NCBI GenBank assembly: GCA_965206645.1
Contig: CBDBKE010000004.1
Coordinates: forward strand, 992,001-1,056,000
Length of the DNA: 64,000 bases
Source of the DNA: Terriglobia bacterium
Lineage (GTDB): Bacteria; Acidobacteriota; Terriglobia; JAJPHL01; JAPKYU01
Direction: 5' to 3'
Positions 27,636-57,086 of the stretch are shown here, in pieces. The position numbers were made by a program, and so were the translations under genes. Under the pieces are notes generated by a model that did not search any database, was not told where the DNA came from, and worked only from the letters and a program-made list of their open reading frames with translations. Every line of letters begins with the position of its first letter. Within the stretch, counting starts at the first letter, position 1.

Positions 27636-27703
27636 GGGTCCGTCTCCCTTCCGTCAGCGCCCCCGCTGGGGGGGCTGTTCCGAGCCTTCCCGCAGGGATA
27701 AAT

Positions 27704-30611: not shown

Positions 30612-30623
30612 CGGCGAAATGGA

Positions 30624-31538: not shown

Positions 31539-31541
31539 TTT

Positions 31542-32845: not shown

Positions 32846-33681
32846 GGCCCGATCTCCGGCGCGGTGAAGCGCCATCGGACTTTTTGTTTGCCGATCTGCA
32901 ACCACCCGTCACCCAAAACGTGGCGGGCGATATACAGCCCGTCCTCGCCCAGATCGTAGGCCACCAGCGCCGGTTTCCCGTCCTTCTCTTCGTACAGTGC
33001 GGGCGACTCCTGGGGGTTGGCGCGAAGGTAGGTAAACCGCCCGTCGTGCCACATCCCTTCGACCAGGAACGGCCATTTCTTCGCCTTGTCCTCCAATCGG
33101 TAGGGGAACTTGAGGCGCGTGGGATACTCCGCCCGGAACGCCTCGGTTTTCTGTGCCTCCACGCGCGCCGCGTCCGCGATCCGGGTATCCGCGTCTACCT
33201 GTGCGGCCTTGGCCGTCTCGATGGCTGTTTTCGCCATTTGCTGATAGGCCGCAACCTGGGAGCGAGCGACAAAGGCCGGTTCGTGCCCGACCGGTGAAAT
33301 GCGCGGGTCGGCTTCTCCCTGCGCCTCGATGCGAACCACCAGGTGCGGATCTCCCGCGCTCCGCTCGGTGACGAGGAATGAATAGATGCGCCCCGACTCG
33401 CAAACCAGCGCGACGTTGGTAGTCACGCCCTCGGCGATAGGTTTGAGGAAGGCCAGATTTGCGGCCCCGGTCAGGTGCCAGTACTCGGAATCTCCGACGA
33501 CAAAATCCAGCACGTTTTCCGTCGCGGGAAGCACGATGACGGTGGTGTGTCGGGTCTTGGCCCGAATCCGGATGATTTGATCCTGGGTCTCGATGACGCG
33601 GAGCACCGGCCCGCCGTCCTGAGCGATCAGCGGGCCGGTAAGAGCAAGTAGCGTGGCCGTGATAAGTGAAACGATTTTCAA
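32842..33681 (-). CDS. virB9: VirB9/TrbG
   Basis: Signal peptide, TTVIVLP...GDSEYW, LKP, DGRFTY motifs. Confidence 0.88.
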   Translation of the reverse strand: MKIVSLITATLLALTGPLIAQDGGPVLRVIETQDQIIRIRAKTRHTTVIVLPATENVLDFVVGDSEYWHLTGAANLAFLKPIAEGVTTNVALVCESGRIYSFLVTERSAGDPHLVVRIEAQGEADPRISPVGHEPAFVARSQVAAYQQMAKTAIETAKAAQVDADTRIADAARVEAQKTEAFRAEYPTRLKFPYRLEDKAKKWPFLVEGMWHDGRFTYLRANPQESPALYEEKDGKPALVAYDLGEDGLYIARHVLGDGWLQIGKQKVRWRFTAPEIGP

Positions 33682-33687
33682 CGTGAG

Positions 33688-36111
33688 CTACCTCCTGGAC
33701 AGGTGTTCAATGGCCTCGGTGAGGCCATACTGTTTGACGGCTTCCGCCCGCTTCTGAGCATCGACCGGCGACGAGGTATAGAGCCAATAGCTGGCCGGAT
33801 CGACTTCGAGCCGCAAGATGCCCGCCGCGTCGGTGCGCCGTAGATAAAGCTCCCGTTTGGGGATCAAGCCGCGAATGGTGTTCATTTCCGAAGGGTTGAG
33901 CCGGAAGGTGTCTGCGGCTTTCTCCGGCAAATCGGGATTGGCGAGAAATAGCTTGGTCGGCATGGATTCGAGCAACGCTTCCGCCCCTGCGGTTCCGGTT
34001 ACGTCCACGGCGCTCTGCGTGGCGACGACGAGCGCCGCATTCTTCTTGCGCCAGGTCTTCGCGGCTTCGGCCAGGTAGCCGAGAATGGCCGGGTCTTGGA
34101 GGTAGCGCCAGGCTTCATCGACCACCATGAGTTTTACCCTTGCGGTCTCATCCGGGTTCTCCAAAGCTAGCCGCAACCGTTCGAGAAGGTAGAACAGCGC
34201 TGCTTCGCACAAGTCTTCGTGCTCCGCCGCGCCCGCCATGTCGATCACCTGCCAGTCCTGGAAGTTGAGATCGTCTCCGTCTGCCGGGTTGTCAAAGTAC
34301 CTGGCCCACGCTCCGGCTCCGTGCCAACGGCCCAAAGCGGGCCACATCTTTGCGGGAAGAGAACGGACCAGCACCCCAAGGGTCCGCCGCTGGGGTGCAA
34401 AGGCATAGAGGTCTTCGACGCGGGCGCGAATCTCGCTGGGGTCTTCGCCACTGAGTTTCCACCCGCCGATCCTCAACAGACGCGATATCCAGCCGGTTAG
34501 GAACCCGAAGGTGCGCTCCCCGACCGGGAGCGAGAAGGGGCGCAACCGGAAACCGGCGCTCCCGCTCCCGTCGGGGGATAGCTCCATATAGCCGCCGCCT
34601 AGAAACTGCGTGAGCCAGCGATAGGAGCCGCCGAGATCGAGAATGAGAACACGCGGATCGTATTGGAGCGCCTGAACCAGCAGGAAATTGAGCAAGAAAC
34701 TTTTACCCGCGCCGGTCGCGCCGAGAACCAGCGTGTGCCCCACGTCGCCTTGAAACAAATCGTAGTGGTAGGGAGTCCGCCATTGGGTCTCAAGGATCGC
34801 CAGTGCCGGCTTCCGCAAGTGGCCGCTCCGGGGTGTCCCCACCGGCGGCCCGAAGATCGGGGCCATCGAAGCAACCGCGCCCGCCGATACAAACACGGAT
34901 CGAACCTGCCGCCGTCGCGGTTGCGCGGGCATCCGCGAGAACCAGGCCGGAAGCTGCCCGTAACCCTCCCGGATCACCTTGGCGTCGTGGCTGTTAAAGA
35001 TGCGCCGAATATCTCCGTCCAGGCTCTCGGTCTCCGATAGCGGGCCGTGGATCGCCACGGTCAGGGCCAGGTCGCCATAGGCGATTCCGTCCGTCTCCAA
35101 CTCGACCAGGGCATCGCCCAGCCGGTCGGATTCAGCCGCCGCTGCGGTGTCCACCATCGCCGCCGTCGTCCCTTCGGTTTCCTGAACGTGCGCGGACATC
35201 GAGTAGCGCTTCGAGAAGTAATGCCGCTGCGCCCCACGGATTTTGCGCCGGGCGGCATCGAGGCGCTGCGGCCGCCATTCGAGCGTCACCGTCATCGTTG
35301 CATCGAGCCGGTAAAGACCCTGCAGAAGGTTGGCGCGGGCCGCTCCCGGTGGCGAAAGCAGCGAGTAGAGAATGACGGGTTCCCCGTCCAGGCGCAGATT
35401 GCGCCGCTCCGCTTCGAGCTCTGAGATGGCCAGCCGCCAATTCATGCCGCTGCCCCTCGCGCCGTCCCAAAAAGTTCCGGGCCGGTTCGTGAGTTCATTC
35501 AAGACGAGAGACGATTCCCGCGCTTCGAGCATCCGCACCGGCGTAAGGTCATCGACCAGCGCCCGGCTTGCCTCGACCAGCTGCCGAAAGCCCGCCGCCG
35601 CCGATTCGATAGAGGAATGGAGGTAAACGGATTCATGCCGGTTCCGCCGCCGGGCCATCCAGTTCTTGGCATAGGCCATCCACCACGGCCCGCCCGTCCT
35701 CTCGGTGGTGACGGCGGACAGGTGCGGATCGTGAACCCATGCAACGTAGGCGCTCACGTCCTGCACTCGTTCTTCCAGGAACGCCCGGCGCTTGCGCCGT
35801 CCGAGCGTGGCCACGCTCGACGCCGCGCCGTCGGTATCGTCCGCAAAGTGGATCGGGCGGCGCAACAGATAGAAGTAAAGACGCGTCCGGGAATCGAGCC
35901 CCGACAACATCCGCTGCCAGCGGTCGATCACTCGATCCAGTTGTTCGGGCGTCTGGCCGTCCAGAACGCTGGGCGTCACCCGCCCGATGCTCAGAAGTTC
36001 TCCCGCCCGCGTCAGGCACGTTCGCCCATCTCCCAGCCAGCCCCACCAGGGCAGTTCCTCGGCCAGCGATCCCGCCGCTTCGTAGTCCATGAGTTCGTTG
36101 TCCACATTCAC
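33688..36111 (-). CDS. virB4: VirB4/TrbE ATPase
   Basis: GHTLVLGATGAGKS, VDEAW, RKKNAA, ATQS. Confidence 0.93.
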   Translation of the reverse strand: MNVDNELMDYEAAGSLAEELPWWGWLGDGRTCLTRAGELLSIGRVTPSVLDGQTPEQLDRVIDRWQRMLSGLDSRTRLYFYLLRRPIHFADDTDGAASSVATLGRRKRRAFLEERVQDVSAYVAWVHDPHLSAVTTERTGGPWWMAYAKNWMARRRNRHESVYLHSSIESAAAGFRQLVEASRALVDDLTPVRMLEARESSLVLNELTNRPGTFWDGARGSGMNWRLAISELEAERRNLRLDGEPVILYSLLSPPGAARANLLQGLYRLDATMTVTLEWRPQRLDAARRKIRGAQRHYFSKRYSMSAHVQETEGTTAAMVDTAAAAESDRLGDALVELETDGIAYGDLALTVAIHGPLSETESLDGDIRRIFNSHDAKVIREGYGQLPAWFSRMPAQPRRRQVRSVFVSAGAVASMAPIFGPPVGTPRSGHLRKPALAILETQWRTPYHYDLFQGDVGHTLVLGATGAGKSFLLNFLLVQALQYDPRVLILDLGGSYRWLTQFLGGGYMELSPDGSGSAGFRLRPFSLPVGERTFGFLTGWISRLLRIGGWKLSGEDPSEIRARVEDLYAFAPQRRTLGVLVRSLPAKMWPALGRWHGAGAWARYFDNPADGDDLNFQDWQVIDMAGAAEHEDLCEAALFYLLERLRLALENPDETARVKLMVVDEAWRYLQDPAILGYLAEAAKTWRKKNAALVVATQSAVDVTGTAGAEALLESMPTKLFLANPDLPEKAADTFRLNPSEMNTIRGLIPKRELYLRRTDAAGILRLEVDPASYWLYTSSPVDAQKRAEAVKQYGLTEAIEHLSRR

Positions 36112-36114
36112 GCG

Positions 36115-36411
36115 CTATCTCCGAATCAGGATCGTCCAGGGAGAAGCCGCCCATTTACCGGGATCGTAGCGGGCGCGAAACTTTGCGGACGCTCGCAGGA
36201 TTTCAAGCATGTTGGGGTCTTGTTTCCAGGCCCAAAATCCCACGCCGTAGAGCACTCCGAAAATGACTCCCCCGGTCACAATGGAGTTGATGGCGTTCCA
36301 CATGGCAAGGCCCAACGTGGCGCTCAACAGGAACCAGCGCCGTTCCACGCCCATGATCGTGAGGGGCTTGCTGAGCGCCGGGTATCCGCGCCATGTCTTG
36401 CCGCGCTCCAT
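36115..36411 (-). CDS. virB3: VirB3/TrbD
   Basis: ALSKPLTIMGVER, two TMs, QDP motif. Confidence 0.85.
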   Translation of the reverse strand: MERGKTWRGYPALSKPLTIMGVERRWFLLSATLGLAMWNAINSIVTGGVIFGVLYGVGFWAWKQDPNMLEILRASAKFRARYDPGKWAASPWTILIRR

Positions 36412-36704
36412 CAGAAGAGCCACGCCAGAAAGTTGGCCGCGCCCATGGCCATGCCAAGACCGAAGACGATCCCGGCCAGGGCCTTTTTGCTGCCGCCCTC
36501 GCCAAAGGCGAACATGAGCCCGCCCACCACGATGGCAATCAAGCTCAGTCCTCGCGCAATGGGTCCGGTGAACGCCGCCTGCAGCACGTCTATGGCTTGC
36601 AGCCAGGGGCTTGTTCCCTGCGCCATGAGTTCTCCCGCCGATAGTGCAAGGGCGCTCACCAGCAGCGCTCCCCGCTTCCAGGTGATTGAGTTGTTGTTCT
36701 TCAT
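36411..36704 (-). CDS. virB2: VirB2/TrbC pilin
   Basis: Signal peptide, SPW...FTGPIARGLSLIAIVVGG. Confidence 0.88.
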   Translation of the reverse strand: MKNNNSITWKRGALLVSALALSAGELMAQGTSPWLQAIDVLQAAFTGPIARGLSLIAIVVGGLMFAFGEGGSKKALAGIVFGLGMAMGAANFLAWLF

Positions 36705-36736
36705 GCTTCCCTCCGTGTCTGTTGGGTCGCTGTGCA

Positions 36737-37060
36737 TCAGGCTCCGGGAAACTGCCCCCGGTCCTCTTGTTCCAGTTTCTCGGCAAGCTCGATTTGCCCG
36801 CCCTCGCCGCGCCGGATGGACCGCTCCATCAGATCGACCTTGCGGCCCATGTCGGCCAGCCCCAAGGCACGGGCGGCGGAGTAGATCACGACCATAAGCG
36901 TCACCACGGCCAGACCGCCATGCCACGCGACGGGTAGCCAGTAGTCGGTTGCGATGATTCCTAAGTACGGCTTGAGATAAGCGAAGCTCTCGCCGGCGAG
37001 CATCAAGGCCACGGCCAGGATGATGGCCGTCAGTCCAATGCTGATCTTCCACGGTTGCAT
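36737..37060 (-). CDS. Hypothetical two-TM membrane protein
   Basis: RBS GGAG, two hydrophobic helices, within tra operon. Confidence 0.7.
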   Translation of the reverse strand: MQPWKISIGLTAIILAVALMLAGESFAYLKPYLGIIATDYWLPVAWHGGLAVVTLMVVIYSAARALGLADMGRKVDLMERSIRRGEGGQIELAEKLEQEDRGQFPGA

Positions 37061-37070
37061 CGCTTCTCCC

Positions 37071-37970
37071 TCAGAGTTCGATAGAGCCCTTGTCTCGTCT
37101 GCCGCCGCTTCCCCCTCCGCCTCCGGTGCTGTGGTCCTGGCCGAGCGCCCGCGCTACTCGCGCCGCCGCCCGCCCATTGCTTCCATGCACGGCGAATCCA
37201 GCGGCGGCTTTTGCGCCGATACTCTTGGCGCTGTAGTGCTCGGTCGCAATCTCGACGTTCACGCGCCCGCTGCGGCCTTCGATGTCGCTGTATTCCAGCT
37301 GCGCGTCCGGGTACTCCACCCGTCCATCCTTGACGGGGAGCCCCAACTCTTCCGCCGCCTCAAACCGTGCAGCGTCCGCCGCCTCCTTTCCGCCTCGCGC
37401 TCTCGCGCTTTCCGTGGCGCGGGCGATCTCGCCTTTAAGCTCGGCGTCAATACGGACCCGCTTGAGGACGGCTCCTTGTTCGAGCAACCGCACTTGCTCA
37501 ATCCTTGCGGCCCGAAACACCGCAACATCGTGTTGCAGTTCATTGGGCTTCACGAGGCCGCTCCATGCCTCCTGCTCTTTGTCGAGTCCTTGTTCGCGGG
37601 CTACCCGCTCGGCCCGCTCTACTCCGCGCTCGGTGAGCGTGAGCACCTTGTAGGTGCCGCCTTGCGGCCCCTCGGCGCTGTGCTCCCGGACGTGCCCGGC
37701 CCGAATCATGCGATCCACGGCCCGACGCGCCGCGTAAGGGTGTCCATCGAAGTGAGCTTTGGCCAGGTCGCGGTAGGCGACACTCCGATACATCCCCAGG
37801 TCGGCCACCGCCCGATCCGCCCGCTCCTGGAAGTTCTTGCGCTTGGTGCGGGGATCGTATTCGCGCCGGTGGCCGTCGCGCTCCCGCCGTTCCCGTTCTT
37901 TGGTGTGGTCGCGCCTGGGGCGAGTTACGGTCCTGCGGGGATCGGTAGCTAGGTCTCGCGGATCGAACAC
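37071..37970 (-). CDS. Replication-relaxation (PD-(D/E)xK) family protein; candidate relaxase
   Basis: wHTH (LTLTERG) then LQHD, YPDA, VEIATEHY...K pattern. Confidence 0.65.
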   Translation of the reverse strand: MFDPRDLATDPRRTVTRPRRDHTKERERRERDGHRREYDPRTKRKNFQERADRAVADLGMYRSVAYRDLAKAHFDGHPYAARRAVDRMIRAGHVREHSAEGPQGGTYKVLTLTERGVERAERVAREQGLDKEQEAWSGLVKPNELQHDVAVFRAARIEQVRLLEQGAVLKRVRIDAELKGEIARATESARARGGKEAADAARFEAAEELGLPVKDGRVEYPDAQLEYSDIEGRSGRVNVEIATEHYSAKSIGAKAAAGFAVHGSNGRAAARVARALGQDHSTGGGGGSGGRRDKGSIEL

Positions 37971-37979
37971 GACGGCTCC

Positions 37980-39065
37980 TTACCGGCTCAACCCAACCTC
38001 GCGTTGGAGCTTCTGCGCGTGTTGTTCCGTGGATTGCTTCGGCGTCTGGCTGATCTGAGGCCCGCGAGCATGAGAATATTGGTGGCTCAACTCCGCCGCC
38101 GTCTTCTCCTTGACCGGCGCTTCGCGCTCGTGCTCGACCGCACGATCCATCAGGTAATCGGTCATTCGCTGCGCGTCCCGCGCCGCTCTATGAATCTCGT
38201 GCGGGTCTTTTTCGAGCACCGCAACCCAATTCTCGATATAGGCCGCGCCGCGCTGCGGGTCATGCCCCACGCCCACGCGCTCCCCCGTCATCATGGCGCT
38301 GATCTCGGCCCGCAATTCCTCGCGGGCGTACTCCGGTGATCCAAAGCCCTTATCCAGCCCGTCCTTGAGCGTGTCGCGGTTCATGCGATCCGGGTGGCCG
38401 GTCGAGTGGCCGCATTCATGCAGCGCCGTCTGGTAGTAGCCGTTGCGCGTCGGGAATTGGGACGGCTCCGGGAGCACCACCTTGTCCTCGGCGATCCGAT
38501 AGTAGGCCCGATCTCCGGGGACGTGCTCGACCCTCGGCCCGCTGGCCTCAATCACCTTCTCCGCATCGCGGTGGGCGTCCCATTCAGGCCGCGCCTGTGC
38601 CGAGCGCGGCTTCAACTCCAATCCATCGGCCTGCTCGACGTTGAACACGGTGTACTGCTTACAAATCGGCTTTCCACGCTGCTCTTCTTCGTAGATCGTC
38701 TTCCCGTCCTTGTCCTTGAGCACCTTGCCCTGCTCGTCCTTTGCGGTTCGTGCCGTCCGATCCGTGAAAAACAAGACCTGCGTCCCTTTCTCGCCTTTGC
38801 GAACCTGCCCGCCCGCTTCTTGGATCTGGGTGTAGGTACCCCAACGGTTGTCGCCCCGTCCATCGCGGATACCCCGGCTCATCAGGTAGAGGCTGTTGCC
38901 GCCCGTGTAGGATTTGCCGGTCGAGAAGTTTTCCGGGCTGCTCTGCTCCCCCGGCTTCCACGGCTTCTGCCATGGCGCCACTCCCGCCTTGATTTGTTCG
39001 ATGAGTTCCTCGCTGACTTTCTCGGCGTAGTCTTCCCCGCGCTGCCAAAAGGATTTTTTAGCCAT
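37980..39065 (-). CDS. ardC: ArdC antirestriction protein
   Basis: APWQKPW, YTGGN, GGQVRKGEKG, VFNVEQ, HECGHSTG, YAREELRAE. Confidence 0.92.
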   Translation of the reverse strand: MAKKSFWQRGEDYAEKVSEELIEQIKAGVAPWQKPWKPGEQSSPENFSTGKSYTGGNSLYLMSRGIRDGRGDNRWGTYTQIQEAGGQVRKGEKGTQVLFFTDRTARTAKDEQGKVLKDKDGKTIYEEEQRGKPICKQYTVFNVEQADGLELKPRSAQARPEWDAHRDAEKVIEASGPRVEHVPGDRAYYRIAEDKVVLPEPSQFPTRNGYYQTALHECGHSTGHPDRMNRDTLKDGLDKGFGSPEYAREELRAEISAMMTGERVGVGHDPQRGAAYIENWVAVLEKDPHEIHRAARDAQRMTDYLMDRAVEHEREAPVKEKTAAELSHQYSHARGPQISQTPKQSTEQHAQKLQREVGLSR

Positions 39066-39255
39066 CGGGTGCCCCCGTTTCAATTCGCTCTTCAAACTTC
39101 GCCCGATGCTCGATCATCCGCCCAAAACCTCCGTCCCTCGGTTTCCACGGCTTCTGCCAGGGCGCATCGCCACGCTTGATCTGCTCCATGGCTTCCGCCG
39201 CAACTTTCTTCGCAGGGCCTCTCCCAGGCTGACCGGCGCTAGTCATGGGGATCAC
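39058..39255 (-). pseudogene. Duplicated ArdC N-terminal fragment
   Basis: AKKVAAEAMEQIKRGDAPWQKPWKP matches the ardC start. Confidence 0.6.
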
Positions 39256-40698: not shown

Positions 40699-43600
40699 CT
40701 ATTCCTGATCCGGCATCTCCGGGACCGGCACCACCGGAAGCGTCGTGAAGATGCGCGTGCCGGGGTCCATTTCCAGGGCCACGGCGGTAAACAGATCCCC
40801 CCCTGGAGCACTGCAGCGCACCGACCCTGCGAAGTCGGACGTATCGGCGCCGGGGAACGCCTGGTCGATGAGCCAGGCCGTCTGCCCGTTGGCCTCCAGA
40901 GGGATGCTCGCGCCGTCGAGCAGCACACCCTCTCGCATCAAATCGCAGTGCACCAACCCCGCACTCGATTCCAGGTTGTGGAGCGCGACCCCCGTCGTGA
41001 TTCCTCCCTCCTGGCGGCGCACCGGGAAGAGGACGTCGCTGACGGGCGGGCTGGCTCCCACCCCGGCCACCCCGATCTCTGGGACGCCATAGCGCACGCC
41101 GCCGCCGATGGGACCGTCCGAGAGGACCTTCACCGATCCCGACACCAGCTCGCCTTGCCCGTGGGTTGAAATCGTGAGTTCCCCCAGCGGCTCCATCTCC
41201 GTCCGGACGGTCAGGCCTCCGTCCTCGGTGACCTCCAGATCGACCGTCACGTCCACCACCGATGCGGGGTCAATGAGACGGCCCCCTCGATCGTAAAAGT
41301 AGATTGCGGGCCGGATCGGATGGGAGGACACATTCACGAGCACCATCTCGGAGGTGATGCCGGTCCCATTGGCGAAATGCGCGAAGTCCAGGGCAAACAC
41401 TTCCGGCGCTTCCGGCGTGGCCTCGGCTTGGTTGGAAGCCCGGCCCCTGCCGATCCGGTTCACCGCCCGCACCTCGAAGACGTAGGCCGTGCCGTTGACG
41501 AGACCGGTGACCGTATCGGTGGTGTCGGTGGAGCCGATGGATATCCAGCGTCCCTTCCCGTCGATGCGGTACTCGTAATCCCTGATCTCAGAGCCGCCGT
41601 CGTCTTCGGGCGGGTCCCAGGACAGCTTCACCTGCCCGTCTCCACCCTCCGCCAGCAGATTCCTGGGCGCGGACGGCACCGTTTGGCGTGGGCCACCGCC
41701 GCCACCTCCGCCGGTTGACGGAGATGGCGTGGCTTCGAGCGTCACCACAGCACCACTGCCCAGGGCGTTGACCGCCCGCACCCGGAACATGTAGGTCTGG
41801 CCGTTGTTCAGGCCGGTCACCGTGTGGCTGGTGGCCGTCCCGCCCGTGGAGATCCAGATCTCGGACCCGTCCAGCTCGTATTCGTAGTGCGTGACCTCCG
41901 CGCCGCCGGATGGCTGGACCCAACTGAGCATCACCTGCCGGTTGCCGGGCGTGGCGTCGAGGCTGTGCGGCACGTCTGGCGCCCCCAGCGCGCCGGTCTG
42001 CCCCGAACCGGGCAGCGACCAGGGGCTGTCGCCTTCGGCGTTGGTCGCCAGCACCTGCACCTGGTAGGAGGTGCTCTCGGTCAGGCCCGAGATCGTCGCG
42101 CTGGTGCCGCTCACGTTCTGGGGGCCGTTGGTCCAGCTCCCGCTGGTGCCTTCCCGGTACTGCAGGTCGTAGTTGTCGATGGCGGGACCGGTGTTCGACG
42201 GTGTCGTCCAGTTCACCGACAGGCTGGTGGTGTTGCCGTCGACCGACGACACCGAGGGGGCCGCAGGCCGGCCCGGCGGCTCCTCCACGTCGGTGACCGT
42301 GATGGTCACCGCGAGGGTGTCGCTGCCGCCGTTGTCGTCCTCGGCCTTCAGCGTCACCGAGTAGCTCGGTTTCGTCTCGTGGTCGTAGGTGACGCCGGAC
42401 TCCGTCGAGAGCTGCCGGGTCGCCGGGTCGAAGCCGAACGATGCCGCGTCTGCGTCCTCCAGGGTGTAGGTCAGCGGGTCGTTGTCCGCATCCGTCGCCG
42501 CCGGCAGCGCCGTGCCGATGTTCGTGTTCGCCGCCGTGTTCTCGGGCACCTCGCGCGTGGCCGTGGGCGAGGAGAATTCCGGCGGCTCGTTGGCGGTGAT
42601 CGCGTTGGTGACTGGCTGAAGGACGACGGCATTGTTGGTGTTGCCGGCGAGGTCTGCCACAGCCAGCTGCGTTAAGGTGATGGTCAAGGTGCTGGTGAGG
42701 CTCACCACTCCGCTGTGGTCGACGGTGACCCGGCTCCCGCTGATGGTCGCCGCTGTGACTGCGCTGGTCACGTCCGATCCCGATGTGGTGACGGTGACGA
42801 GGAACTTGCTTGAATCCGCGCTTGCCAGTGCCTCGCTGAACGTCAGGATCACCTTCGTGCCGTCGGTCGACGTCGTCGGCGCATCGCTGCCCGTGGTGAC
42901 GAGCGTCGGGCGGATGCCGTCGACCTTGTGCCCGGCGTCGATCATGACCGCGATGTGGGTGAGGTCGGCGGTGGTGGTCGTGCTGCCGGTGGCGTAGATC
43001 GTGCCGCCGGTGAGCTTGTTCGCCGCGATCGCGACGCCGTTCGGGGCCGAGTCTCCCACCACCACCGTGTAGCTGCACGCCATCGTGGTCGTGTTCGTGC
43101 CGGTCGCGCAGGCGGCCGCTTTCGCGGTGCCGTTAAAGTCCAGCTCCAGCTGCGGCGTGCCGGTGATGTCGACCGCCTCGCTGAAGGTCACCGTCGCCTC
43201 GACCGCGTCGCCGATGCCGTAGGTGTTGAGGAGTCCGGGGTCGGAGGTCAGCGCGACCGACGTGACGGCCGGGGGGACCGGGGGGACCGGGGTGGAGTCG
43301 TCCGTGATCCTCAGCGCAATAGAGTCGCTCACGGACCAGCTGGGGACGTTGCTGTACCAAGAATAGGAATAGGTGCCCGCGCCATACGTTGCCTCACTGA
43401 AAGGGAATTGCTGGGTGCCAACAAGCAGCAATAGATTTGCAGCATCATCCCCGATCCCAACACCGTCGAGACTAAAAACCAGCACAGCTCCCGCGACAAC
43501 GGTTACGTTGTCAATTGTGTAGTTGGTTCCTTCATAGGTGAACGTCGTATCGGAAAGAGTGCCAAAACTACCTATGAATCCAACAGCACTCCCAGTAGCA

Positions 43601-44862
43601 GTCGCCACCGTCAGGGTGGCCGACCAGATCTCGGTGCCGGAGCCGGGCGTGGTGAAGCGAACGATGTCGACTGTGTAGGTTTTCGTGGTCGTTGTGTCGG
43701 GCGCGGTCACCTTCACCTTGACGATGTTGGTGCCCACGCTGAGGTTGACCTGGAGGCCGGCGGTCATGGTGTCGGCGTCCGTCAGGGTGTTGTCCGACCC
43801 GTCGAGATACTCAACCGTCGCCGTCGACTCGCTTTTCGTCTCGGTGATCGTGACCTGGCTCACCGCATTCGCCACCACCACCCCGTAATCTGTCGTGGCC
43901 GCGTCGAACGCCGGGCTGAGCGTCGCGCCGCTCACCGACAGGGCGCTCAACGTCGCGTCGGTGGTGTCGACCGTGACCGCATAGCCATTGACGATGATGC
44001 GGAGCGCCTCGTTGGCCCCGGACTTAACCGTCCAGGTGCCGCTGTTGTTCCAGTAGAACGTGTCTTTGATGCTCCAGTCCGAGAGGCCGAGCGCCGCATC
44101 TTCTCCGCTGGAGGTGGTGGAGTTGAGCTCCACGCTCCCGGTGCCGCGCTGCTTGATCACCACCACATAGTTGGTGTTCGCCGAGAGGGCGAGGCCGGTG
44201 TGGTCGAAAAACAGGAGCCCGGCCGCGAAGCTGGCCGGCGCCGTCAGGGCCGTGCAGTCGGAGGCGGTGGTGGAGGGAAACTCGTTCGCGGTGCCATCCT
44301 CCTCGCAGATCTCGACGTCGAAGTCGTCGCCCTCGGCGTCCTCGGAGCTGACGTGCATGCTGGTGAGGATGTAGCCGGCCGTGTTGCCACCCGTGTGGAA
44401 CAGCTGCGCATGGTCGTTGCCACTGGTGCTGGCGCTGTCATCGGCCATTTGCGCTTGGTTGCTCACGAGGACGCGCGGCGTCTGCGCCTCCGCCGGGGCC
44501 GCCCCGAGGAGCGCCAGACCCAAGACGAGGACGGTGGCGGCGGCGCGGCCTGGACGGGCGGGCCGACGGGACCGGTCTCGATCCCGCGCCCCGGCGGGCG
44601 CGGCGGAACAGTCAGACGGGAGGCTGGACCCCCCTCCGCTCATCCAGCGCATGGACCGCCCCGACGGCCCTGATGAGGGCGCGCGGCGCGCGCGGCGTTC
44701 CAGCGCGCCCGGGAGGCATGCCCCGACCACGCGCACGCGCCGGCGCGGCCACGCCCATGCCCGACGACACCACGCCGGGACCGCACCAACTCCCAGCCAC
44801 CGCGCGAGCACCGCCGTCAGCCAGCGACCGCCTCTCCTGCGACCGTTCCTGGGAAAACGCAC
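40699..44862 (-). CDS. Large surface protein/adhesin with cadherin-like beta-sandwich, cadherin and three FN3 domains
   Basis: GTG start with GAGGAGG RBS; LALLGAAPAEAQ signal-like stretch; DATLSALSV, ANEPPEF, DADND, W..P/Y..L..Y..V.A.N FN3 motifs. Confidence 0.9.
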   Translation of the reverse strand: MRFPRNGRRRGGRWLTAVLARWLGVGAVPAWCRRAWAWPRRRVRVVGACLPGALERRARRAPSSGPSGRSMRWMSGGGSSLPSDCSAAPAGARDRDRSRRPARPGRAAATVLVLGLALLGAAPAEAQTPRVLVSNQAQMADDSASTSGNDHAQLFHTGGNTAGYILTSMHVSSEDAEGDDFDVEICEEDGTANEFPSTTASDCTALTAPASFAAGLLFFDHTGLALSANTNYVVVIKQRGTGSVELNSTTSSGEDAALGLSDWSIKDTFYWNNSGTWTVKSGANEALRIIVNGYAVTVDTTDATLSALSVSGATLSPAFDAATTDYGVVVANAVSQVTITETKSESTATVEYLDGSDNTLTDADTMTAGLQVNLSVGTNIVKVKVTAPDTTTTKTYTVDIVRFTTPGSGTEIWSATLTVATATGSAVGFIGSFGTLSDTTFTYEGTNYTIDNVTVVAGAVLVFSLDGVGIGDDAANLLLLVGTQQFPFSEATYGAGTYSYSWYSNVPSWSVSDSIALRITDDSTPVPPVPPAVTSVALTSDPGLLNTYGIGDAVEATVTFSEAVDITGTPQLELDFNGTAKAAACATGTNTTTMACSYTVVVGDSAPNGVAIAANKLTGGTIYATGSTTTTADLTHIAVMIDAGHKVDGIRPTLVTTGSDAPTTSTDGTKVILTFSEALASADSSKFLVTVTTSGSDVTSAVTAATISGSRVTVDHSGVVSLTSTLTITLTQLAVADLAGNTNNAVVLQPVTNAITANEPPEFSSPTATREVPENTAANTNIGTALPAATDADNDPLTYTLEDADAASFGFDPATRQLSTESGVTYDHETKPSYSVTLKAEDDNGGSDTLAVTITVTDVEEPPGRPAAPSVSSVDGNTTSLSVNWTTPSNTGPAIDNYDLQYREGTSGSWTNGPQNVSGTSATISGLTESTSYQVQVLATNAEGDSPWSLPGSGQTGALGAPDVPHSLDATPGNRQVMLSWVQPSGGAEVTHYEYELDGSEIWISTGGTATSHTVTGLNNGQTYMFRVRAVNALGSGAVVTLEATPSPSTGGGGGGGPRQTVPSAPRNLLAEGGDGQVKLSWDPPEDDGGSEIRDYEYRIDGKGRWISIGSTDTTDTVTGLVNGTAYVFEVRAVNRIGRGRASNQAEATPEAPEVFALDFAHFANGTGITSEMVLVNVSSHPIRPAIYFYDRGGRLIDPASVVDVTVDLEVTEDGGLTVRTEMEPLGELTISTHGQGELVSGSVKVLSDGPIGGGVRYGVPEIGVAGVGASPPVSDVLFPVRRQEGGITTGVALHNLESSAGLVHCDLMREGVLLDGASIPLEANGQTAWLIDQAFPGADTSDFAGSVRCSAPGGDLFTAVALEMDPGTRIFTTLPVVPVPEMPDQE

Positions 44863-44875
44863 CGTCACCTCCTCG

Positions 44876-44911
44876 TTTTGCTCGCGATAACTGGAATTAT
44901 CGCGAGTAAAA
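44876..44911 (+). promoter_or_regulatory. loxP-like recombination site L
   Basis: TTTTGCTCGCGATAA-CTGGAA-TTATCGCGAGTAAAA; arms 14/15 complementary. Confidence 0.85.
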
Positions 44912-44948
44912 ATGAGCGGTCTTTTTCGACGGAACGGGAGGCCGCCCG

Positions 44949-45932
44949 ATGCTGATTGCCGAGACGCCATGCGATGTCGAGCGTGTGACCGGCGTGGCAC
45001 ACGCCGCGGAGGTGGGGGACTCCCTGGCCGCTTACTTCGACGCGGCCCGGGGGGCGTTCAGCCACAACACCGAACGCGCGCTGAGAGCCGACGTGGAGAT
45101 ATTCGCAGCCTGGTGCCGACAACATCTCCGGGCGGCGTTGCCCGCCAGCGTCCCTACCGTGGTCGCGTTCATCGACGACATGGCGCGCGTCAAGACTCCG
45201 GCGACGGTGCGCCGCTACGTGTCCAGCATCGCCACCGTGCACAAGGCGCTACGGCAAACGAGTCCCCTGGAGAGCGCCCCCGCGCGGTTCGCCCTGCAAC
45301 GGATGCACCGGCGCCGGGGGCGTCGGCAGGCGCAAGTCCAGGGGCTGACCTGGCCGATGCGAAACCGACTGCTGGAGGCGGCCGGAGACCGGTTGATCGA
45401 CGCCCGGAACCGCGCGCTCCTGGCGATGGGCTACGACACGCTGCTGCGGCGCTCCGAGCTGGTTTCGCTGGACGTGTCTGATGTACTGGAGGAAATCGAC
45501 GGAACGGCGACGCTGCTCGTGCGCTCAGGCAAGACCGACGCGGAGGGGCGAGGCGCGACGCTCTACCTGGCGCGCGACACCGTGCAGCTCGTCAAGACGT
45601 GGCTCGAACGGGGCGGCGTCGACGGAGGGCGGGTGTTCCGCTCCGTGCGCAAGGATCGCACGGTCGGCGAGCAGCTCGACGCGAGCCAGGTGCCGCGCAT
45701 CTACAAGCGGATGGCGCGACACGCCGGGCTTCCCGACGACATCGTCGACGCGCTGGCCGGGCACAGCACGCGCGTCGGGCCGGTGCAGGACATGATCGCC
45801 TGTGGCATCGAGTTGCCGGCCATCCTGCAGTCGGGTCGGTGGAAGACGACGCGCATGGTCCACCGCTACGGGGAACGGTTGCTGGCGCGGCGCAGCGGCG
45901 CCGCCCAGCTGGCCGAGCGGCAGCAGCGCTGA
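44949..45932 (+). CDS. Cre-like tyrosine recombinase
   Basis: SHNTERA SAM-like N-domain, LLRRSEL (R), GKTD (K), GHSTRVG (HxxR), GRW (Cre-type W), MVHRY (Y). Confidence 0.93.
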   Translation: MLIAETPCDVERVTGVAHAAEVGDSLAAYFDAARGAFSHNTERALRADVEIFAAWCRQHLRAALPASVPTVVAFIDDMARVKTPATVRRYVSSIATVHKALRQTSPLESAPARFALQRMHRRRGRRQAQVQGLTWPMRNRLLEAAGDRLIDARNRALLAMGYDTLLRRSELVSLDVSDVLEEIDGTATLLVRSGKTDAEGRGATLYLARDTVQLVKTWLERGGVDGGRVFRSVRKDRTVGEQLDASQVPRIYKRMARHAGLPDDIVDALAGHSTRVGPVQDMIACGIELPAILQSGRWKTTRMVHRYGERLLARRSGAAQLAERQQR

Positions 45933-46035
45933 ACAGGCCCCACTCTGGAGGCGACGGGTCGTGACGCTGGCGCGCACGTCAGGGGTAGAGGTTCGCCCGC
46001 GCCGTCCCCAGCGGCGCCCTCACATCTCTGGGACG

Positions 46036-46050
46036 TTATCGCGAGCAAAA
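46036..46050 (+). promoter_or_regulatory. Solo recombinase half-site
   Basis: TTATCGCGAGCAAAA equals one arm of site L. Confidence 0.7.
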
Positions 46051-46233
46051 ACTCGACATTGTTGCTACATGTCCCGCGATGGGCGCGGCGCACTCCGCCG
46101 GTTGTTCCGTCGGCAGACGCAACCCTGTTCCGACAGAACCGCCGTGATTTCAGCGGTTTATTACTGAAAGTGATGGCGAATGCGGGTCACGGTGTGATAT
46201 GCTCGCGCCGTACCGACCTGGCGCGGAACCGAT

Positions 46234-46269
46234 TTTTGTGCGCGATAATTCCAGTTATCGCGAGTAAAA
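46234..46269 (-). promoter_or_regulatory. loxP-like recombination site R (inverted relative to L)
   Basis: TTTTGTGCGCGATAA-TTCCAG-TTATCGCGAGTAAAA; spacer is the reverse complement of the L spacer. Confidence 0.85.
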
Positions 46270-46716
46270 TGCCTTGATGTGATCGCGTTTCCCGACGCTT
46301 CAGGTCACAGCATGTCAGCGCCAACCGGTGCTCCCTATTTCCCCGTCGTGGCGGCCTCCCGTCGTTGATCACGATGGTGGCCTCGCCGCCATCGGTGAGG
46401 CGCCCGTCGCCGCCGGTGACTCGCCCCACCCGTCGACCATCGAGATCCCTCGTGACGTCGCGCCCGTGGCGCGCATCGCGCGACCGGCCTCTGCGCTGAC
46501 CCAGCAGGCACGCCGTCGCAGCGCCCTCCGCGGGTGGGCGGCAGATGCCATCCCTGCCGTTCATCACGTGGAGGCCATGCTACCGACGCGCCGGGAGGAT
46601 GGGTATACGAGAACATCGCGGGTGGTTATGAGGGGGAACACCCCATGGTGTTGGCCGTTCCGTTCGCCGGTCCTGTGCCCGGTCTCGGGAGCCCGCCGCG
46701 GCGCCGGCGCCCCCGC

Positions 46717-47676
46717 TCAGCGGATCGACAGCAGGTGCGCGCGCAGGGTCACGCGCCGCTCCACGCCGAGCTTGGCGCGGATGTTGTGGCGGTGAAAGTC
46801 GATCGTGCTCGGCGCCCGCGACAGCGTGGCGGCGATGTCCTTCGTGGTCAGGCCGCGCATCACCAGATGCGCGACGTCGGCTTCGGTCGCGGTCAAGGCC
46901 TGGAACACGCGCGCCATCCTCGATGACAGCGACGAGGTGAGGGTCGTGAGGTTGGTCTCGATCAGGCTCACGTACTCCACGGCCGCGCTGTCGCGCTCCA
47001 CGAGCCGCGCGAGCTTCGCCACATGCGGCATCACCAGCGTATGGATCTGTTGCAGCAGCTGCTCGTTGCGCGCCTCGTGGGACTTCTCGACATTGCCGAG
47101 CAGCACGCGCAGCGCCGTGTTGGCGTCCTGCAGTTCGCTGGTGCGTTCGACCACCTGCCGTGCGGTCTGGTCGAGCGAGTGCTGCAGGGCGGTTTCGAGC
47201 CGGCGGCGTTCGGCGATCTCGACCAGCGACCGCAGGTTCGCCTCGACCACGCCGGCGAACGCCTGCAGCCCCTCGCGGAACAGCAGCGCGTGGTCGTTGC
47301 GCTCGCGGTCGAGCACGCAGATCGTGCCGAACACCTCGCCGCTGGGCCATTTCAGGGGATAGCCGATGTAGAAGCGCATCCCGTCGGCCAGATCCTCGTT
47401 GGCCGCCCAGACCGGGTCGCGGGTCGCGTCCTCGACCACCAGCTCGCCGTCGTTGTCGAACACGCCCTGGCAATAGAGCAATGCGTTCAGATCGTACTCG
47501 CGCCCGACATCGTAGGGGTTGCCCTCGGTGCGGCTACTCACCAGGACCGTGTGCTTCGGACGCTCGGTGCGCATGATCAGGCTCGCCGGCACCCGGGCGA
47601 GCCGTGCCGTCAGGTCGACCACGCGCTGCCACTCGGCCAGCGTCTCGGACGGGATCGCGGGCAGCACGGTCGTCAC
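46717..47676 (-). CDS. GAF + LuxR-HTH transcriptional regulator (start uncertain)
   Basis: FYIGYPL...GTICVLD GAF; LTATE...GLTTKDIA...TIDFHRHNIRAKLG. Confidence 0.88.
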   Translation of the reverse strand: MTTVLPAIPSETLAEWQRVVDLTARLARVPASLIMRTERPKHTVLVSSRTEGNPYDVGREYDLNALLYCQGVFDNDGELVVEDATRDPVWAANEDLADGMRFYIGYPLKWPSGEVFGTICVLDRERNDHALLFREGLQAFAGVVEANLRSLVEIAERRRLETALQHSLDQTARQVVERTSELQDANTALRVLLGNVEKSHEARNEQLLQQIHTLVMPHVAKLARLVERDSAAVEYVSLIETNLTTLTSSLSSRMARVFQALTATEADVAHLVMRGLTTKDIAATLSRAPSTIDFHRHNIRAKLGVERRVTLRAHLLSIR

Positions 47677-47904
47677 GGCCGCAGTTCCGATGACCACCGC
47701 CGCCGGGCCGGACCCGATCGGGGACGGGGACTCCTCGCTAACGGCATACGCACTCGTGCCTCGGCCTGGACAACGGGGGATGCCATGCCGTCGCACGATC
47801 GAGGGGCATCCGGGAAGAATACCTGAATCGATATGGGGCACTGCCCCATATTGTTCGGGACGTGGCGGCGGCCTTTCGCGGGGGCCGGGCACCGCTCGGC
47901 CGGG

Positions 47905-48187
47905 GCCCACGGGTCGGGCAGTTGCTGCAGGCGCGGCACACGTTCGTCGATGGGATGGTAGACCTCGAGGTACTCTCGTTCCAGGTTTCGCGGCGCTGTC
48001 CCCGGTAGTAGAGCCCGGCGAAGAGCACCCGGAGGTCGTCCTTCGGGCCTTCGCCGACCAGGAGTGCATTGCTCGTCAGGCCGCAGGCCTCGTCAATCAG
48101 GGCCGTGGTGGTCGGCCAGTGAACATCGTCGAGCATGGCTTCGTGCAACGATGTCAGGATGCGCTTGAATGCGTCGTGGCCACTCAT
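47905..48187 (-). pseudogene. Truncated, frameshifted N-terminus of a LuxR-type regulator
   Basis: LHEAMLDDVHW...LIDEACG then frame change to EYLEVYHPIDERVPRL. Confidence 0.55.
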
Positions 48188-48352
48188 GGCGATGTCTTCC
48201 TTCAGTCATAAGAATGTCAACTGACCGCCGCGGAGCCGAGCCGACATCGATCTGGAGTCCAGAGAGTGGAGCGTTGCGGTGGAATGGATGGAGCACACGC
48301 GGGAGTACCGGGTGCCGGGACTGATCAACTCCAAGCCAGAGGAGAAGGCCGA

Positions 48353-49060
48353 ATGATCAATCAGCCGGAGGAACGCCCGCTATCTATCGGGTCTGCCGTA
48401 CAGTTCACTCACAAGGGGAAAACAATCCACGGACATCTCTTCCAAAGGCAGGGCCGACGCCGCTTCGCGAAGGTCGTCGACACCGCAGAGCGGACCTGGA
48501 ACGTCCCCGAGTCAATGTTAAAGCCCTCGGGAGGAGCGCGACGAGCCACGATCATCACGCGGCACGACAACGCACGCGCTGACTACCGCGTGGGGGACAA
48601 GGTGACGTTCACAAGTCCCGACGGACCAAGGCGTGGCGAGATCGTGAAGTTCAACCCGAAGAGCGCCAAGGTACGCTGCGAAGAGACAGGCTGGAACGTC
48701 TCCTATGGCTTACTCCACAGGGCGGGAAAGGAAAGCGCGAGGAACGGTGCGGAGAGGCTGAACGGCGTCGCGGGAATGGCGAGGCGGTTGATGGACGAGC
48801 AGGGGCTCACGGGCTGGACGCTCGCGTTCGGCGAGGCCAGGAAACGCCTTGGCGCCTGTCATTTCCGACACCACGTGATCTGGATCAGCCGCACCCATGC
48901 CCTGGAGGGAAGCGAGGAGCAGATCCGGGACACCGTGCTACACGAGATCGCACACGCGATCGCGGGACACGAGGCTGGCCATGGACCGCTGTGGAAGGCA
49001 ACAGCACGGCGAATCGGGGCAACACCGAGGGCGAAGACCTATGAGAGCCAAACGAGCTAA
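48353..49060 (+). CDS. SprT-like metalloprotease with N-terminal SH3-like repeats
   Basis: RLGAC, LHEIAHA, HGPLWK motifs. Confidence 0.88.
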   Translation: MINQPEERPLSIGSAVQFTHKGKTIHGHLFQRQGRRRFAKVVDTAERTWNVPESMLKPSGGARRATIITRHDNARADYRVGDKVTFTSPDGPRRGEIVKFNPKSAKVRCEETGWNVSYGLLHRAGKESARNGAERLNGVAGMARRLMDEQGLTGWTLAFGEARKRLGACHFRHHVIWISRTHALEGSEEQIRDTVLHEIAHAIAGHEAGHGPLWKATARRIGATPRAKTYESQTS

Positions 49061-52463: not shown

Positions 52464-52883
52464 TCACCGACGGTCGACTCGGCGGTGCGCGCCGACTGGG
52501 GGCGGGGCGATAGTTCCGTCTGTGGCAATCAGGTTCGCCTGTCTGACCCGGATGACCTCGTACTCCGTGTGCGCCTCATAGACAAATCCTGCGAGTTCGA
52601 TTCGATCTTTCTCGGGCACCATCAGGAAACACGGTCCCCCGCTAGCACCGCTGAGTTCCGGATTGGGGGGCAGTTCCTCGCCCTGAGGCCAGTACCAGCT
52701 GTTCGAGTCGAAGCAGAACGCCATGTGGTTCTCCGACCAGTTGTCCGCTCGGGCGATGAACGACACGAAGTCGCTAGTCATCGTTGCGGGCCTCTTTCCA
52801 GAAGCTTGAGTCCGACGGTTCGTCGGATACCCGCCAAGAATGACTGGATCGTCCTTCTTGATAGCAGGCGGTGGCCATGCCTC
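52464..52883 (-). pseudogene. Trypsin-like serine protease C-terminal fragment truncated by IS3
   Basis: VILGGYP and GASGGP motifs; abuts the IS3 left IR. Confidence 0.55.
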
Positions 52884-52950
52884 TGACCTGACCGGCACTT
52901 TTTGTACCAAGTGGAAAGAGAGAGAATCCACTTGAGAAGGAAGTGAGGTC

Positions 52951-54095
52951 ATGCCGACAAGGAGTTACAAGCCGGAGCAGATTGTAGCGGTGCTACGGCA
53001 GATAGAAGTGCAGATGGGGAACGGGAAGACTGCGCCCCAAGCCTGCAAAGAAGCTGGAATCCACACCCAAACCTACTACCGGTGGCGGAAGGAATACGGC
53101 GGGCTGAAGGTGGTGCAGGCAAAACGGCTAAAGGAGTTGGAGAAGGAAAACACGCGGCTGAAGCGGTTGGTAGCGGAGCTTTCTCTGGAGAAGCAGGTGC
53201 TGCGGGATGTGGCACAGGGAAACTTCTGAGCCCTGAGCGGCGGCGTTGTGCGGTGGAGCGTGCGTGGGAGCAACACGGGTTGTCGGAACGGCATGCCTGC
53301 CGGCTGCTGGGGCAATGGCGAGGGACACAACGATACGAGCCGATTCATCGGGTGGACGAGGATGCTCTGACCCGAGCGATCATTGCCCTGGGAGCGAACT
53401 ACGGGCGATATGGCTACCGGAGGATCACAGCGTTGCTGCGGAGTGCGGGCTGGGAAGTGGGCAAGGACCGGGTGCAGCGGATTTGGCGGCGGGAAGGGCT
53501 GAAAGTGCCGCAAAAACAAAGGCCGCGAGGACGGCTGTGGCTGAACGACGGTTCCTGTGTACGACTGAGGCCGGAGCGACCGAACCACGTGTGGAGCTAC
53601 GACTTCATGAGTGCCAGAACGCACGAGGGGAGAACGCTGCGGCTGCTGACCTTGCTGGATGAGTACACGCGGGAATGCCTGGCGATCCGGGTGGAGCGGA
53701 GGATGGGCAGCCAACAAATCATTGAGGCGTTGTCGGACGTGATGTTGTGGCGAGGGATACCGGAACAGATTCGATCCGACAATGGTCCCGAGTTCATCGC
53801 CAAACAACTGCGCCAGTGGTTGGCAAATCTAGGGACCGGGACACTGTACATCGAACCGGGCAGTCCCTGGGAGAACGGGTACTGCGAGAGTTTCAATGGG
53901 AAGCTGCGGGACGAATGCCTGAATGGAGAGATCTTCTACTCGTTGAAGGAGGCACAGGTGCTGATTGAACAGTGGAGGGTGCAATACAACACGGTGCGGC
54001 CGCACTCGGCGCTCGGCTATAGGCCCCCGGCGCCGGGGGCCTATAGCCCTCCCCTGCCACTGAAACCAGTTTCACAGCCCCAGGCTGCGATGTAA
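52951..54095 (+). CDS. IS3 transposase OrfA (52951-53229)/OrfB with -1 frameshift
   Basis: HTH and leucine zipper OrfA; GGGAAAC slippery site; WSYDF, RSDNGPEF, ESFNG DDE motifs. Confidence 0.93.
54015..54048. repeat. Perfect 34-bp palindrome
   Basis: GGCTATAGGCCCCCGGCGCCGGGGGCCTATAGCC. Confidence 0.9.
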
Positions 54096-54574
54096 ACTCT
54101 CACTACGGTTGGTACAAAAAATCGGTCTGGTCACGACCGCCACGAGGCGTTTCAGGCGCTGGTTGATGTTCTCGATGGGGGGTCTGGAAACTGAGGCGCT
54201 ACCCGCGGGCATCGCAGCCAGTTGGCCGCCCAGAGAACGGGTATGGTGGACAGATGACAAAGAGCAGACAGACTAGGCAATTGAGCCCGTTTTGGAGTTG
54301 GGTCTGCGCGCGGCGCGCCCATGACAATTTTCGCGGCGACTTTATTCGGGATACGCGGGATCTTGTAGCGATGGGCGTCAACCCGGGAGAGCGCATTCTG
54401 GCGGCGTGCCCCGAGGCCATGCAGGAGTCCGAGCGGCTGCGCGCGACATTCTCGCATCTTCAGTAGTGGTACTGGCGCGGGACGCCGTACCACCATGACT
54501 GCTGGGAGGCCGCAAGACCTCCTGCAACGGGAGGGAGGAGTCTAGTTTGATTTCTCCCCTCCCGATTCCTGGAA

Positions 54575-55459: not shown

Positions 55460-55946
55460 GGCATTCTCTATCCGTCAGTTGATCCGCCCGCTCTCCTTGA
55501 GCCTACACATGATGAGAGTGTGCTTTTCTTTCCTTCCGCTCCTGGACCTTGGCACGGATCTGGCGGGTGTCAGGCCTCTAACCGTCGTTTACTGGTCGTG
55601 GGTGTCGTCGAGGAGGGCGTCATTCTCCAGTAATCAGTGGTCCGAAGAAACCGGGCAGGTCAGCGGGACTGGGATTGTCCCGCCCGCTGTTGATCTTCGC
55701 GAGCGGCGGCTTGTGCTGTGATTCTATGCGACCTTGTCCATTGCGAATTGATATGTTGAGCGATTCTACCCGTGGCCGCTGCCCCAGTGAGGCGAGTGCA
55801 CACTGGCGGAGTACCCTCGGTAGCAGCGAAACAATCAGATCAGACAACCGCTCCGCGTTGACAAGCTCAAACAGCGAATGGTTTCGTAGGAAGTGCCCGC
55901 CTGCCGATGTCCGCCGGTTACACAGGGAGCACCAGTCTTTGGAGAA

Positions 55947-57035: not shown

Positions 57036-57086
57036 CTCAGCATCTTAGCAAGAACCGCTAAACCCAGGAATTAGGCCGTAAACTAG

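Follow-up and report, generated by a model that had tools for sequence, protein, structure and literature searches.

What would a Cre-type recombinase gene enclosed by two inverted lox-like sites be doing beside the start of a giant surface-protein gene? Such a cassette lies in the 64,000-nt stretch of Terriglobia bacterium DNA analyzed here (the window; contig CBDBKE010000004.1, positions 992,001 to 1,056,000), between a gene for a large secreted FN3/cadherin repeat protein (the adhesin) and a right flank that carries a LuxR-family regulator gene. Its left and right sites are called L and R, and all features are listed in Table 1. An earlier note on this DNA described the cassette as a self-inverting phase switch for the adhesin. 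Our own reading, to which we give an even chance, is that the module inverts its own 1358-bp segment (the distance from the start of L to the start of R) and is tied to the expression of the neighboring surface-protein gene.

The enzyme could be placed with some precision. The 327-residue protein matches Pfam Phage_integrase (1e-15), a tyrosine-family model and the only Pfam assignment, with no serine recombinase domain. Among solved structures, its best relative is Cre, over the full length (E 1.2e-22); 17 Cre-derived chains score at E of about 1e-21 to 1e-22 over residues 21-316, while XerC-like and XerD chains reach only E 0.005. The NCBIfam XerC/XerD models give 38-43 bits against cut-offs of 330-335. 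When aligned to Cre, the protein matches R173, K201, H289, R292, W315 and Y324 (Cre numbering), and these six catalytic residues are invariant in 16 of the 16 cassette recombinases extracted, a count that leaves out copy L050. Because of the full-length Cre match, the six catalytic positions and the Xer scores far below the cut-offs, we assign the enzyme on sequence grounds to the Cre-type tyrosine recombinases, in agreement with the Cre-like label of the earlier note. The cassette recombinases have dN/dS values of 0.19-0.27 and are under purifying selection. The sole family name given by a source is 'tyrosine-type recombinase/integrase'; among 8000 scored candidates, the family numbers 1876 or more protein clusters at E <= 1e-30.

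The window sequence also bears out that this gene is flanked by two lox-like sites with reverse-complementary 6-bp spacers, as had been claimed. Both are lox-like in having inverted arms of 13-15 bp, a short asymmetric spacer and a position near a recombinase gene. The arms of L are complementary at 14 of 15 positions and those of R at 12 of 15, and the spacers CTGGAA (L) and TTCCAG (R) are exact reverse complements. L can alternatively be parsed into 14-bp arms and an 8-bp spacer, ACTGGAAT, with GATA abutting the spacer; GATA beside the spacer is described as a feature of active Cre-type target sites in passages of PMC10250229. The 15-nt arm, with up to three mismatches, was found five times in the window against 0.71 expected, and none of 100 shuffles reached five. 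These five matches are the four arms of L and R plus an internal half-site that the earlier note had missed. The two full sites and the half-site are the only ones in the window, and they lie on the 5' side of the adhesin gene. The half-site is present in 17 of the 18 cassettes inspected for it (absent in L078), and the short distance from L to the recombinase ATG was found again in all oriented copies.

Further cassettes were sought by protein search in relatives and by site search in two sets of 401 genomes each, one from the class and one from the phylum, and the hunt also covered a species collection and metagenome contigs. There are 20 full cassettes (W, the one in the window, and L023, L018, L019, L020, L021, L022, L046, L047, L048, L049, L050, L051, L062, L054+L057, L058, L068, L071, L077 and L078) and, in addition, two remnants (L052 and L061). 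An inverted site pair brackets the recombinase gene in all 20 full cassettes, including those whose recombinases are only 52-62% identical. The spacers are CTGGAA/TTCCAG in 17 of the 20; L022, within this group, has a degenerate left spacer, and matched spacers thus number 19 of 20. L068 and L071, with recombinases 60-61% identical, carry CTGTCG/CGACAG, and L078 (62% identical) carries CTGCAA/TTGCAG. In these three, both spacers have altered jointly and are still reverse complements, as expected if both sites must recombine with one another. The sites are almost invariant across four families. Conservation with the cassette extends to approximately 130-150 bp outside L and approximately 250 bp outside R, also at loci with unlike adhesins.

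The module is thinly spread: 9 of the 401 class genomes and 3 of the 401 phylum-sample genomes contain the site (the genome of the window, G000, is in both counts). Genomes with the module hold two or three cassettes. In the metagenome contigs, the exact 22-nt core had no match; a looser pattern gave nine stretches, comprising two full cassettes (L068 and L071), one recombinase only 34% identical that adjoins a single site (L067), and six lone palindromes with no recombinase within reach. Viral contigs gave no site matches. No bracketing lox-like pair was found at two plasmid homologs from cultured Alphaproteobacteria (L072 and L073, 46-49% identical) or at four chromosomal homologs (L012-L015, 32-33% identical). 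Elsewhere in G000, a degenerate site-like palindrome with two mismatches to the core and the spacer TTCCCG (G000:C4:465207-465228) stands 3 kb from a distant recombinase paralog (40% identical, partial length).

Linkage to surface-protein genes is the second conserved property. A gene for a large secreted repeat protein (cadherin/FN3, leucine-rich repeat (LRR) or ankyrin) diverges from the recombinase gene at L in 18 of the 20 cassettes, and the two without one are the two hybrid loci described below. Six of the calls are based on Pfam: W, L068, L071 and L057, with cadherin-like, FN3 or Calx-beta domains; L051, where the neighbor has LRR and Calx-beta; and L058, with a 402-aa ankyrin protein approximately 750 nt off. 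The neighbor was identified by tblastn to the window adhesin in nine (L018-L021, L046-L049 and L078) and by eye only in three (L022, L062 and L077). The window adhesin itself has FN3, cadherin-like and cadherin domains.

In the window, the minus strand carries GAGGAGG (44868-44874) and, after 5 nt, GTG (44862-44860), in frame with the long FN3/cadherin open reading frame. This ribosome-binding site and start codon abutting the left site are present as the earlier note had them, and the real start is uncertain. At least 11 loci have, by eye, a similar motif and a start codon (ATG, GTG or TTG) within approximately 25 nt outside L in otherwise different sequences, such as AAGAGG..ATG, GGGAGG..ATG, GGGGG..GTG and GGAGAG..ATG. 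This recurrence favors translation from the edge of L, as had been held. The stretch between L and ATG 44652 is single-copy in G000 and 100% identical between G000 and G003 over 75 translated residues, and the adhesin diverges; by our estimate for so G+C-rich a genome, a 75-codon frame would be open by chance in about 1 in 4 cases, which tells against translation from the edge of L. We also considered that adhesin variety is made by exchange at L and rejected it, the sequences being alike for 130-400 nt past L. A cassette-free adhesin paralog (G000:C4:55922-56038) contains six tandem GAGAGCC repeats (55997-56038) that separate a strong ribosome-binding site and ATG (55922 onward) from the signal peptide, which now lies in a different frame; the repeats resemble a slipped-strand ON/OFF tract.

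Traces of recombination were found at two loci, the second cassette of G000 (L023) and a cassette in G170, where the outer arm and flank of a right site are joined to the inner arm of a left site. In G000, the sequence right of R (window 46241-49004) also lies left of the second cassette, inverted and 99.3% identical. The left site of that cassette has an outer arm of R type (A at position 5), with that flank, joined to the inner arm of L and the recombinase 5' end, and it is the product of an R x L crossover. G003 (L019) and G000 (L023) share a 1.5-kb flank at 97.9% identity, and against this flank their cassettes face opposite ways; the strand change falls inside the site. The other case, an independent one, involves a 2.76-kb flank with a Sel1-repeat lipoprotein gene, which follows R in G128 and precedes L, inverted (98.8%), in G170, a genome of the same genus. 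Because of these hybrid junctions, we conclude from the sequences that left-by-right site exchange has happened.

The L023 locus (G000:C4:1170140-1176228) has the right-flank sequence of the window on both sides as a long inverted repeat, which includes the LuxR gene, the 126-codon frame of Table 1 and a SprT-like gene. Its left arm is 99.3% identical over 2.5 kb, and its right arm has decayed to 91-97% with gaps. The 135 kb between the two G000 cassettes is bounded by inverted near-identical flanks (46270-49004 of the window and G000:C4:1170140-1172967), each of which ends in a site, the sites being of opposite orientation. The same enzyme could invert the entire 135 kb and leave the local junctions unchanged. 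The two G000 copies could not be derived from a G003-like ancestor: no single inversion or excision yields the observed flanks.

Taken as a switch, the module would work as follows. The recombinase would bind the lox-like pair on either side of its own gene, and recombination between L and R would invert the segment and could not delete it, because the 6-bp crossover regions are oppositely oriented. Each flip would swap the cassette end that abuts the adhesin leader. In every assembly, the end facing the surface-gene leader is the recombinase 5' end; after a flip, the A+T-richer non-coding end with the third half-site would take its place. The adhesin would be set ON or OFF, or to different levels, and expression of the recombinase would be rewired simultaneously, which we consider the most likely role of the module. 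One candidate for the read-out, on the pattern of Hin, is a promoter that points outward from the A+T-richer end, in which case the assembly orientation would be OFF. The other candidate is read-through from the right flank.

The cassette 3' end is the sole A+T-richer non-coding stretch: the last 200 nt ahead of R have 54% G+C, whereas values of 67-73% hold for the flanks, the coding sequence and the 100 nt next to the recombinase stop codon. Here the conserved half-site is followed by TGnTAnnAT-like and GGTTAyAAT-like motifs that face outward, towards R. The -10-like and TTGACA motifs were found by hand, lack a proper partner at 16-18 nt and are leads only. In the right flank, the 126-codon frame has its stop in an identical position in 10 of 13 copies, the codon being variously TGA, TAA or TAG, and R encodes LLAITGIIA within it. 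The shared stop position with three different stop codons hints that the frame is a gene, and it may not be one: its residues are poorly conserved, it is short in L049 and L022, and neither Pfam nor NCBIfam models match it. In W, L077 and L051, the right flank carries a LuxR-family gene that points to R. Separately, a motif of approximately 45 nt (GCGCCGCCCGGTCCCTGCCAAATTGG.AGATTCG..) is present in two or more successive copies, approximately 330-420 nt right of the right site, in L020, L021, L046-L048, L022 and L051, in genomes of two families.

At one hybrid junction, where the right flank meets the recombinase 5' end, the stop of the 126-codon frame falls in ATGCTGA and so overlaps the recombinase start. 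It may be, then, that the recombinase is driven in the flipped state and that this state does not last long, which would account for the dominance of one orientation. A bolder version of the same idea, tentative and on the whole unlikely in our estimate, is that the cassettes form a widespread family of Cre/lox inversion switches gating giant adhesins, in which the flipped state is brief and gives rare pulses, with no stable two-state switch. The resting state, seen in all assemblies, would be a recombinase with little or no promoter. Flipping would join it to the incoming right-flank transcription unit, giving more recombinase and a quick return. There would be at least three spacer classes (CTGGAA, CTGTCG and CTGCAA), expected to show no cross-reaction. 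Conjugative islands would carry the switch, and the targets would be giant adhesins and eukaryote-like repeat proteins (LRR, ankyrin, Sel1).

A number of observations weigh against an inversion switch that acts on the adhesin. The signal-peptide-like stretch of the window adhesin, near 44560-44490, is approximately 115-150 residues downstream of GTG 44862, and signal peptides lie 190-450 nt away from L. Arg/Trp/Gly-rich residues follow GTG 44862, and ATG 44652 is an alternative start. Cassette-free paralogs and some cassette-linked genes have another conserved element, a ribosome-binding site with ATG, 250-290 nt from L. The adhesin may thus own a promoter outside the cassette; given this element and the distant signal peptide, its promoter need not lie in the cassette, and the earlier conclusion that it has to be in or across the cassette is not a necessary one. 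A strict sigma-70 scan of 44400-46700 returned no promoter. In L078 (genome G705), only approximately 60 nt follow the recombinase stop, with no 300-bp non-coding end and no half-site, so that an outward promoter there cannot be universal.

Orientation tells in the same direction. A search for assemblies in the opposite orientation, which the earlier note had suggested, gave none: 0 of the 18 adhesin-linked cassettes are reversed next to the adhesin, which would be unlikely under free, unbiased inversion. In both hybrid pairs, the opposite flank differs too; they are therefore no simple in-place flips, and exchange between copies fits them equally well. Orientation was also checked in assembled contigs of four public runs (X1, X10, X12 and X13), bearing in mind that contigs drop rare variants, and no joint of the outer arm of L with the inner arm of R was found in them. 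Adhesin-side contigs (44578/44593/44612 to 44901/44903) end before 44905, the first orientation-informative base, and cassette-side contigs end at 46256, ahead of the orientation-informative 46265, so that they speak neither for nor against flipping. One contig of X12 has an 'opposite strands' joint from 44913 to 45947, which is outside the spacers and ambiguous, the site being near-palindromic. The stretch 45933-46030 is missing at several contig joints, a sign that those runs hold shorter variants of the cassette. Uncovered parts, and small-share runs labeled sponge, cold seep and seawater, are no evidence of habitat. For the self-inverting phase switch as first described, then, the inverted pair, its conservation and the linkage to surface genes stand, and a reversed copy beside an adhesin and a consensus promoter were not found.

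The most serious competitor, which we consider unlikely on present evidence, is that the sites serve recombination between copies of the island, for resolution or rearrangement, with no local switch and the adhesin as neighboring cargo. Like sites (L-L or R-R) on two copies or in a dimer would recombine, unlike sites on different copies would give large inversions or excisions, and the inverted arrangement would merely stop the recombinase gene from deleting itself. The natural role of Cre in phage P1 is cyclization and dimer resolution, which counts for this explanation, yet one site is enough for resolution, and an inverted pair with jointly changing spacers was found in 20 of the 20 cassettes. 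The cassette sits at the end of a conjugative element whose backbone has four to five copies in the genome (90-95% identity), in keeping with traffic between copies, but the element has its own separate integrase, a Phage_integrase gene at the far end of the backbone (22997-24169). Also consistent with such traffic are the multiple cassettes per genome, a single recombinase variant recorded on 18 contigs, the inverted 99.3% identical right flanks that bound the 135 kb, the single orientation of all adhesin-linked copies, and the fact that both hybrid junctions require R x L exchange with different flanks. Against it, the linkage to secreted repeat proteins persists in the 52-62% identical relatives with different neighbors, and the boundary of conservation lies 130-400 nt past L, not at L.

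Improbable in our view is that the cassette is a small selfish mobile unit that spreads by double crossover between site-bearing loci or into pseudo-sites. The cassettes of one genome are indeed 98.8-99.3% identical with different left flanks, the homology of the two G000 copies (98.8% identical, 136 kb apart) ends at the outer edge of L, and the recombinase family is as large as noted above. Inverted sites, on the other hand, cannot release a circle, and the co-conserved stretches outside L and R make the unit larger than the inter-site segment. No empty single site was found in G000, and the 401 + 401 genomes gave one solo site only (L061), which adjoins a recombinase remnant. The cassettes of G044 are also less alike (89.9%) than their adhesin regions (94.6%). 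That the layout is a relic inherited with the island, whose recombinase no longer acts on the sites, would fit the one orientation everywhere, the assembled contigs without a flipped junction and the remnants L052 and L061, and is barely credible given the purifying selection on recombinases with intact catalytic residues, near-invariant sites across four families with jointly changing spacers, and hybrid junctions that record exchange between close relatives.

Inversion switches as such are already well known. The closest match to the working that we propose is Hin/hix of Salmonella (also Gin/gix of Mu and Cin/cix of P1), a system of serine recombinases with an enhancer and Fis, in which the recombinase gene lies inside the inverted segment and an outward promoter past its far end switches a surface protein; here the enzyme is a Cre-type tyrosine recombinase, and the strict scan found no consensus promoter. 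In fimS/FimB/FimE and related Escherichia coli switches, a tyrosine recombinase turns an adhesin gene ON or OFF by inverting a short element beside it, but the recombinase genes are outside the promoter element of approximately 300 bp, the inverted repeats are short and host factors are needed, whereas here the invertible segment is the recombinase gene itself, set between sites that are full lox-like palindromes. The R64 shufflon likewise has a tyrosine recombinase, Rci, on a conjugative element, where it varies the mating adhesin PilV by reshuffling gene 3' ends at many asymmetric sites; the cassette has two symmetric sites on the 5' side of the gene and is not of the Rci type. FLP/FRT of the yeast 2-micron plasmid shares a recombinase gene between two inverted sites, with inversion as its natural reaction, but it is eukaryotic, has its sites in 599-bp repeats, serves copy-number amplification and is related to the cassette recombinase only at superfamily level.

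Cre makes 6-bp staggered cuts. Cre/loxP and the other Cre-type systems (Dre/rox, Vika/vox, VCre, SCre, Nigri/nox, Panto/pox and the YR series of PMC10250229) are alike in the enzyme and in a palindromic target beside its gene, with 13-15-bp arms, GATA beside an asymmetric center and a 6-bp stretch that fits the stagger of Cre. The differences here are the inverted bracketing pair with a third half-site and the position on a conjugative island beside a giant adhesin gene, not in a phage or plasmid maintenance region. In passages of PMC10250229, the target sites looked for are single palindromes near the gene, with no mention of a bracketing pair. Tyrosine-recombinase promoter switches in E. coli include that of the autotransporter UpaE (PMC6083910). 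We found no description in the literature, the supplementary pair tables of PMC10250229 not being covered, of a Cre-type enzyme within its own invertible segment between full lox-like sites, combined with a third half-site and natural spacer classes; that supplement lists approximately 500 predicted recombinase/site pairs and might include relatives. The cassette is probably an undescribed kind of flip switch. New are the jointly changing spacers, the conserved half-site, the two hybrid junctions and the short variant without the non-coding end.

If the cassette flips, it would be a natural Cre/lox-type gene switch, as opposed to phage or plasmid maintenance. Its enzyme would lie within the very segment that it inverts, as is known for serine invertases such as Hin. 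Uncultured Acidobacteriota and other bacteria would have in it a means, shared by horizontal transfer, of varying the giant adhesins and host-interaction proteins on conjugative elements. For genome engineering, the module also provides compact, ready-made recombinase/site pairs in three natural spacer classes, which would be easy to test in E. coli.

Table 1. Features of the cassette and its surroundings, with positions in the 64,000-nt window
Feature	Position	Strand	Remarks
Integrative conjugative element backbone	22997-39095	-	Integrase, type IV secretion genes, ArdC
Large secreted FN3/cadherin repeat protein gene (adhesin)	40699-44862	-	5' limit uncertain: GTG 44862 or ATG 44652
Stretch between L and ATG 44652	44653-44875		Approximately 130-150 bp nearest L conserved despite differing adhesins
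Left lox-like site L	44876-44911		TTTTGCTCGCGATAA CTGGAA TTATCGCGAGTAAAA; 15-bp arms
Leader from L to recombinase ATG	44912-44948	+	37 nt; GGGAGG 6 nt ahead of ATG
Cre-type tyrosine recombinase gene	44949-45932	+	327 aa
Non-coding cassette end	45933-46233		301 nt
Third, internal half-site	46036-46050	+	TTATCGCGAGCAAAA; same orientation as outer arm of R
126-codon open frame	46187-46567	-	From right flank through R, stops 15 codons inside cassette; doubtful gene
Right lox-like site R	46234-46269		TTTTGTGCGCGATAA TTCCAG TTATCGCGAGTAAAA; inverted relative to L
LuxR-family (GerE helix-turn-helix) regulator gene	46717-48069	-	Right flank; reads towards cassette

The adhesin gene follows the conjugative backbone, which encodes an integrase, a VirB11-like ATPase, a coupling protein, TrbL, TrbI, a VirB4-like ATPase and ArdC. 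The surmise that the locus lies on a mobile island was right in view of this gene set. The stretch that is repeated in the genome (22835-41274) takes in the 3' third of the adhesin gene, and the cassette is on one copy only.

The genome is very rich in insertion-sequence-like elements. Three stretches of the window (18535-20200, 52870-54138 and 55735-57105) are insertion-sequence-like repeats with many copies across all four contigs, at approximately 98-99.9% identity. A 131-bp repeat (58622-58752 and 62259-62389) has dozens of near-identical copies in the genome, like a miniature mobile element, and one copy (G000:C4:1170009-1170139) abuts the end of the inverted flank at the second cassette.

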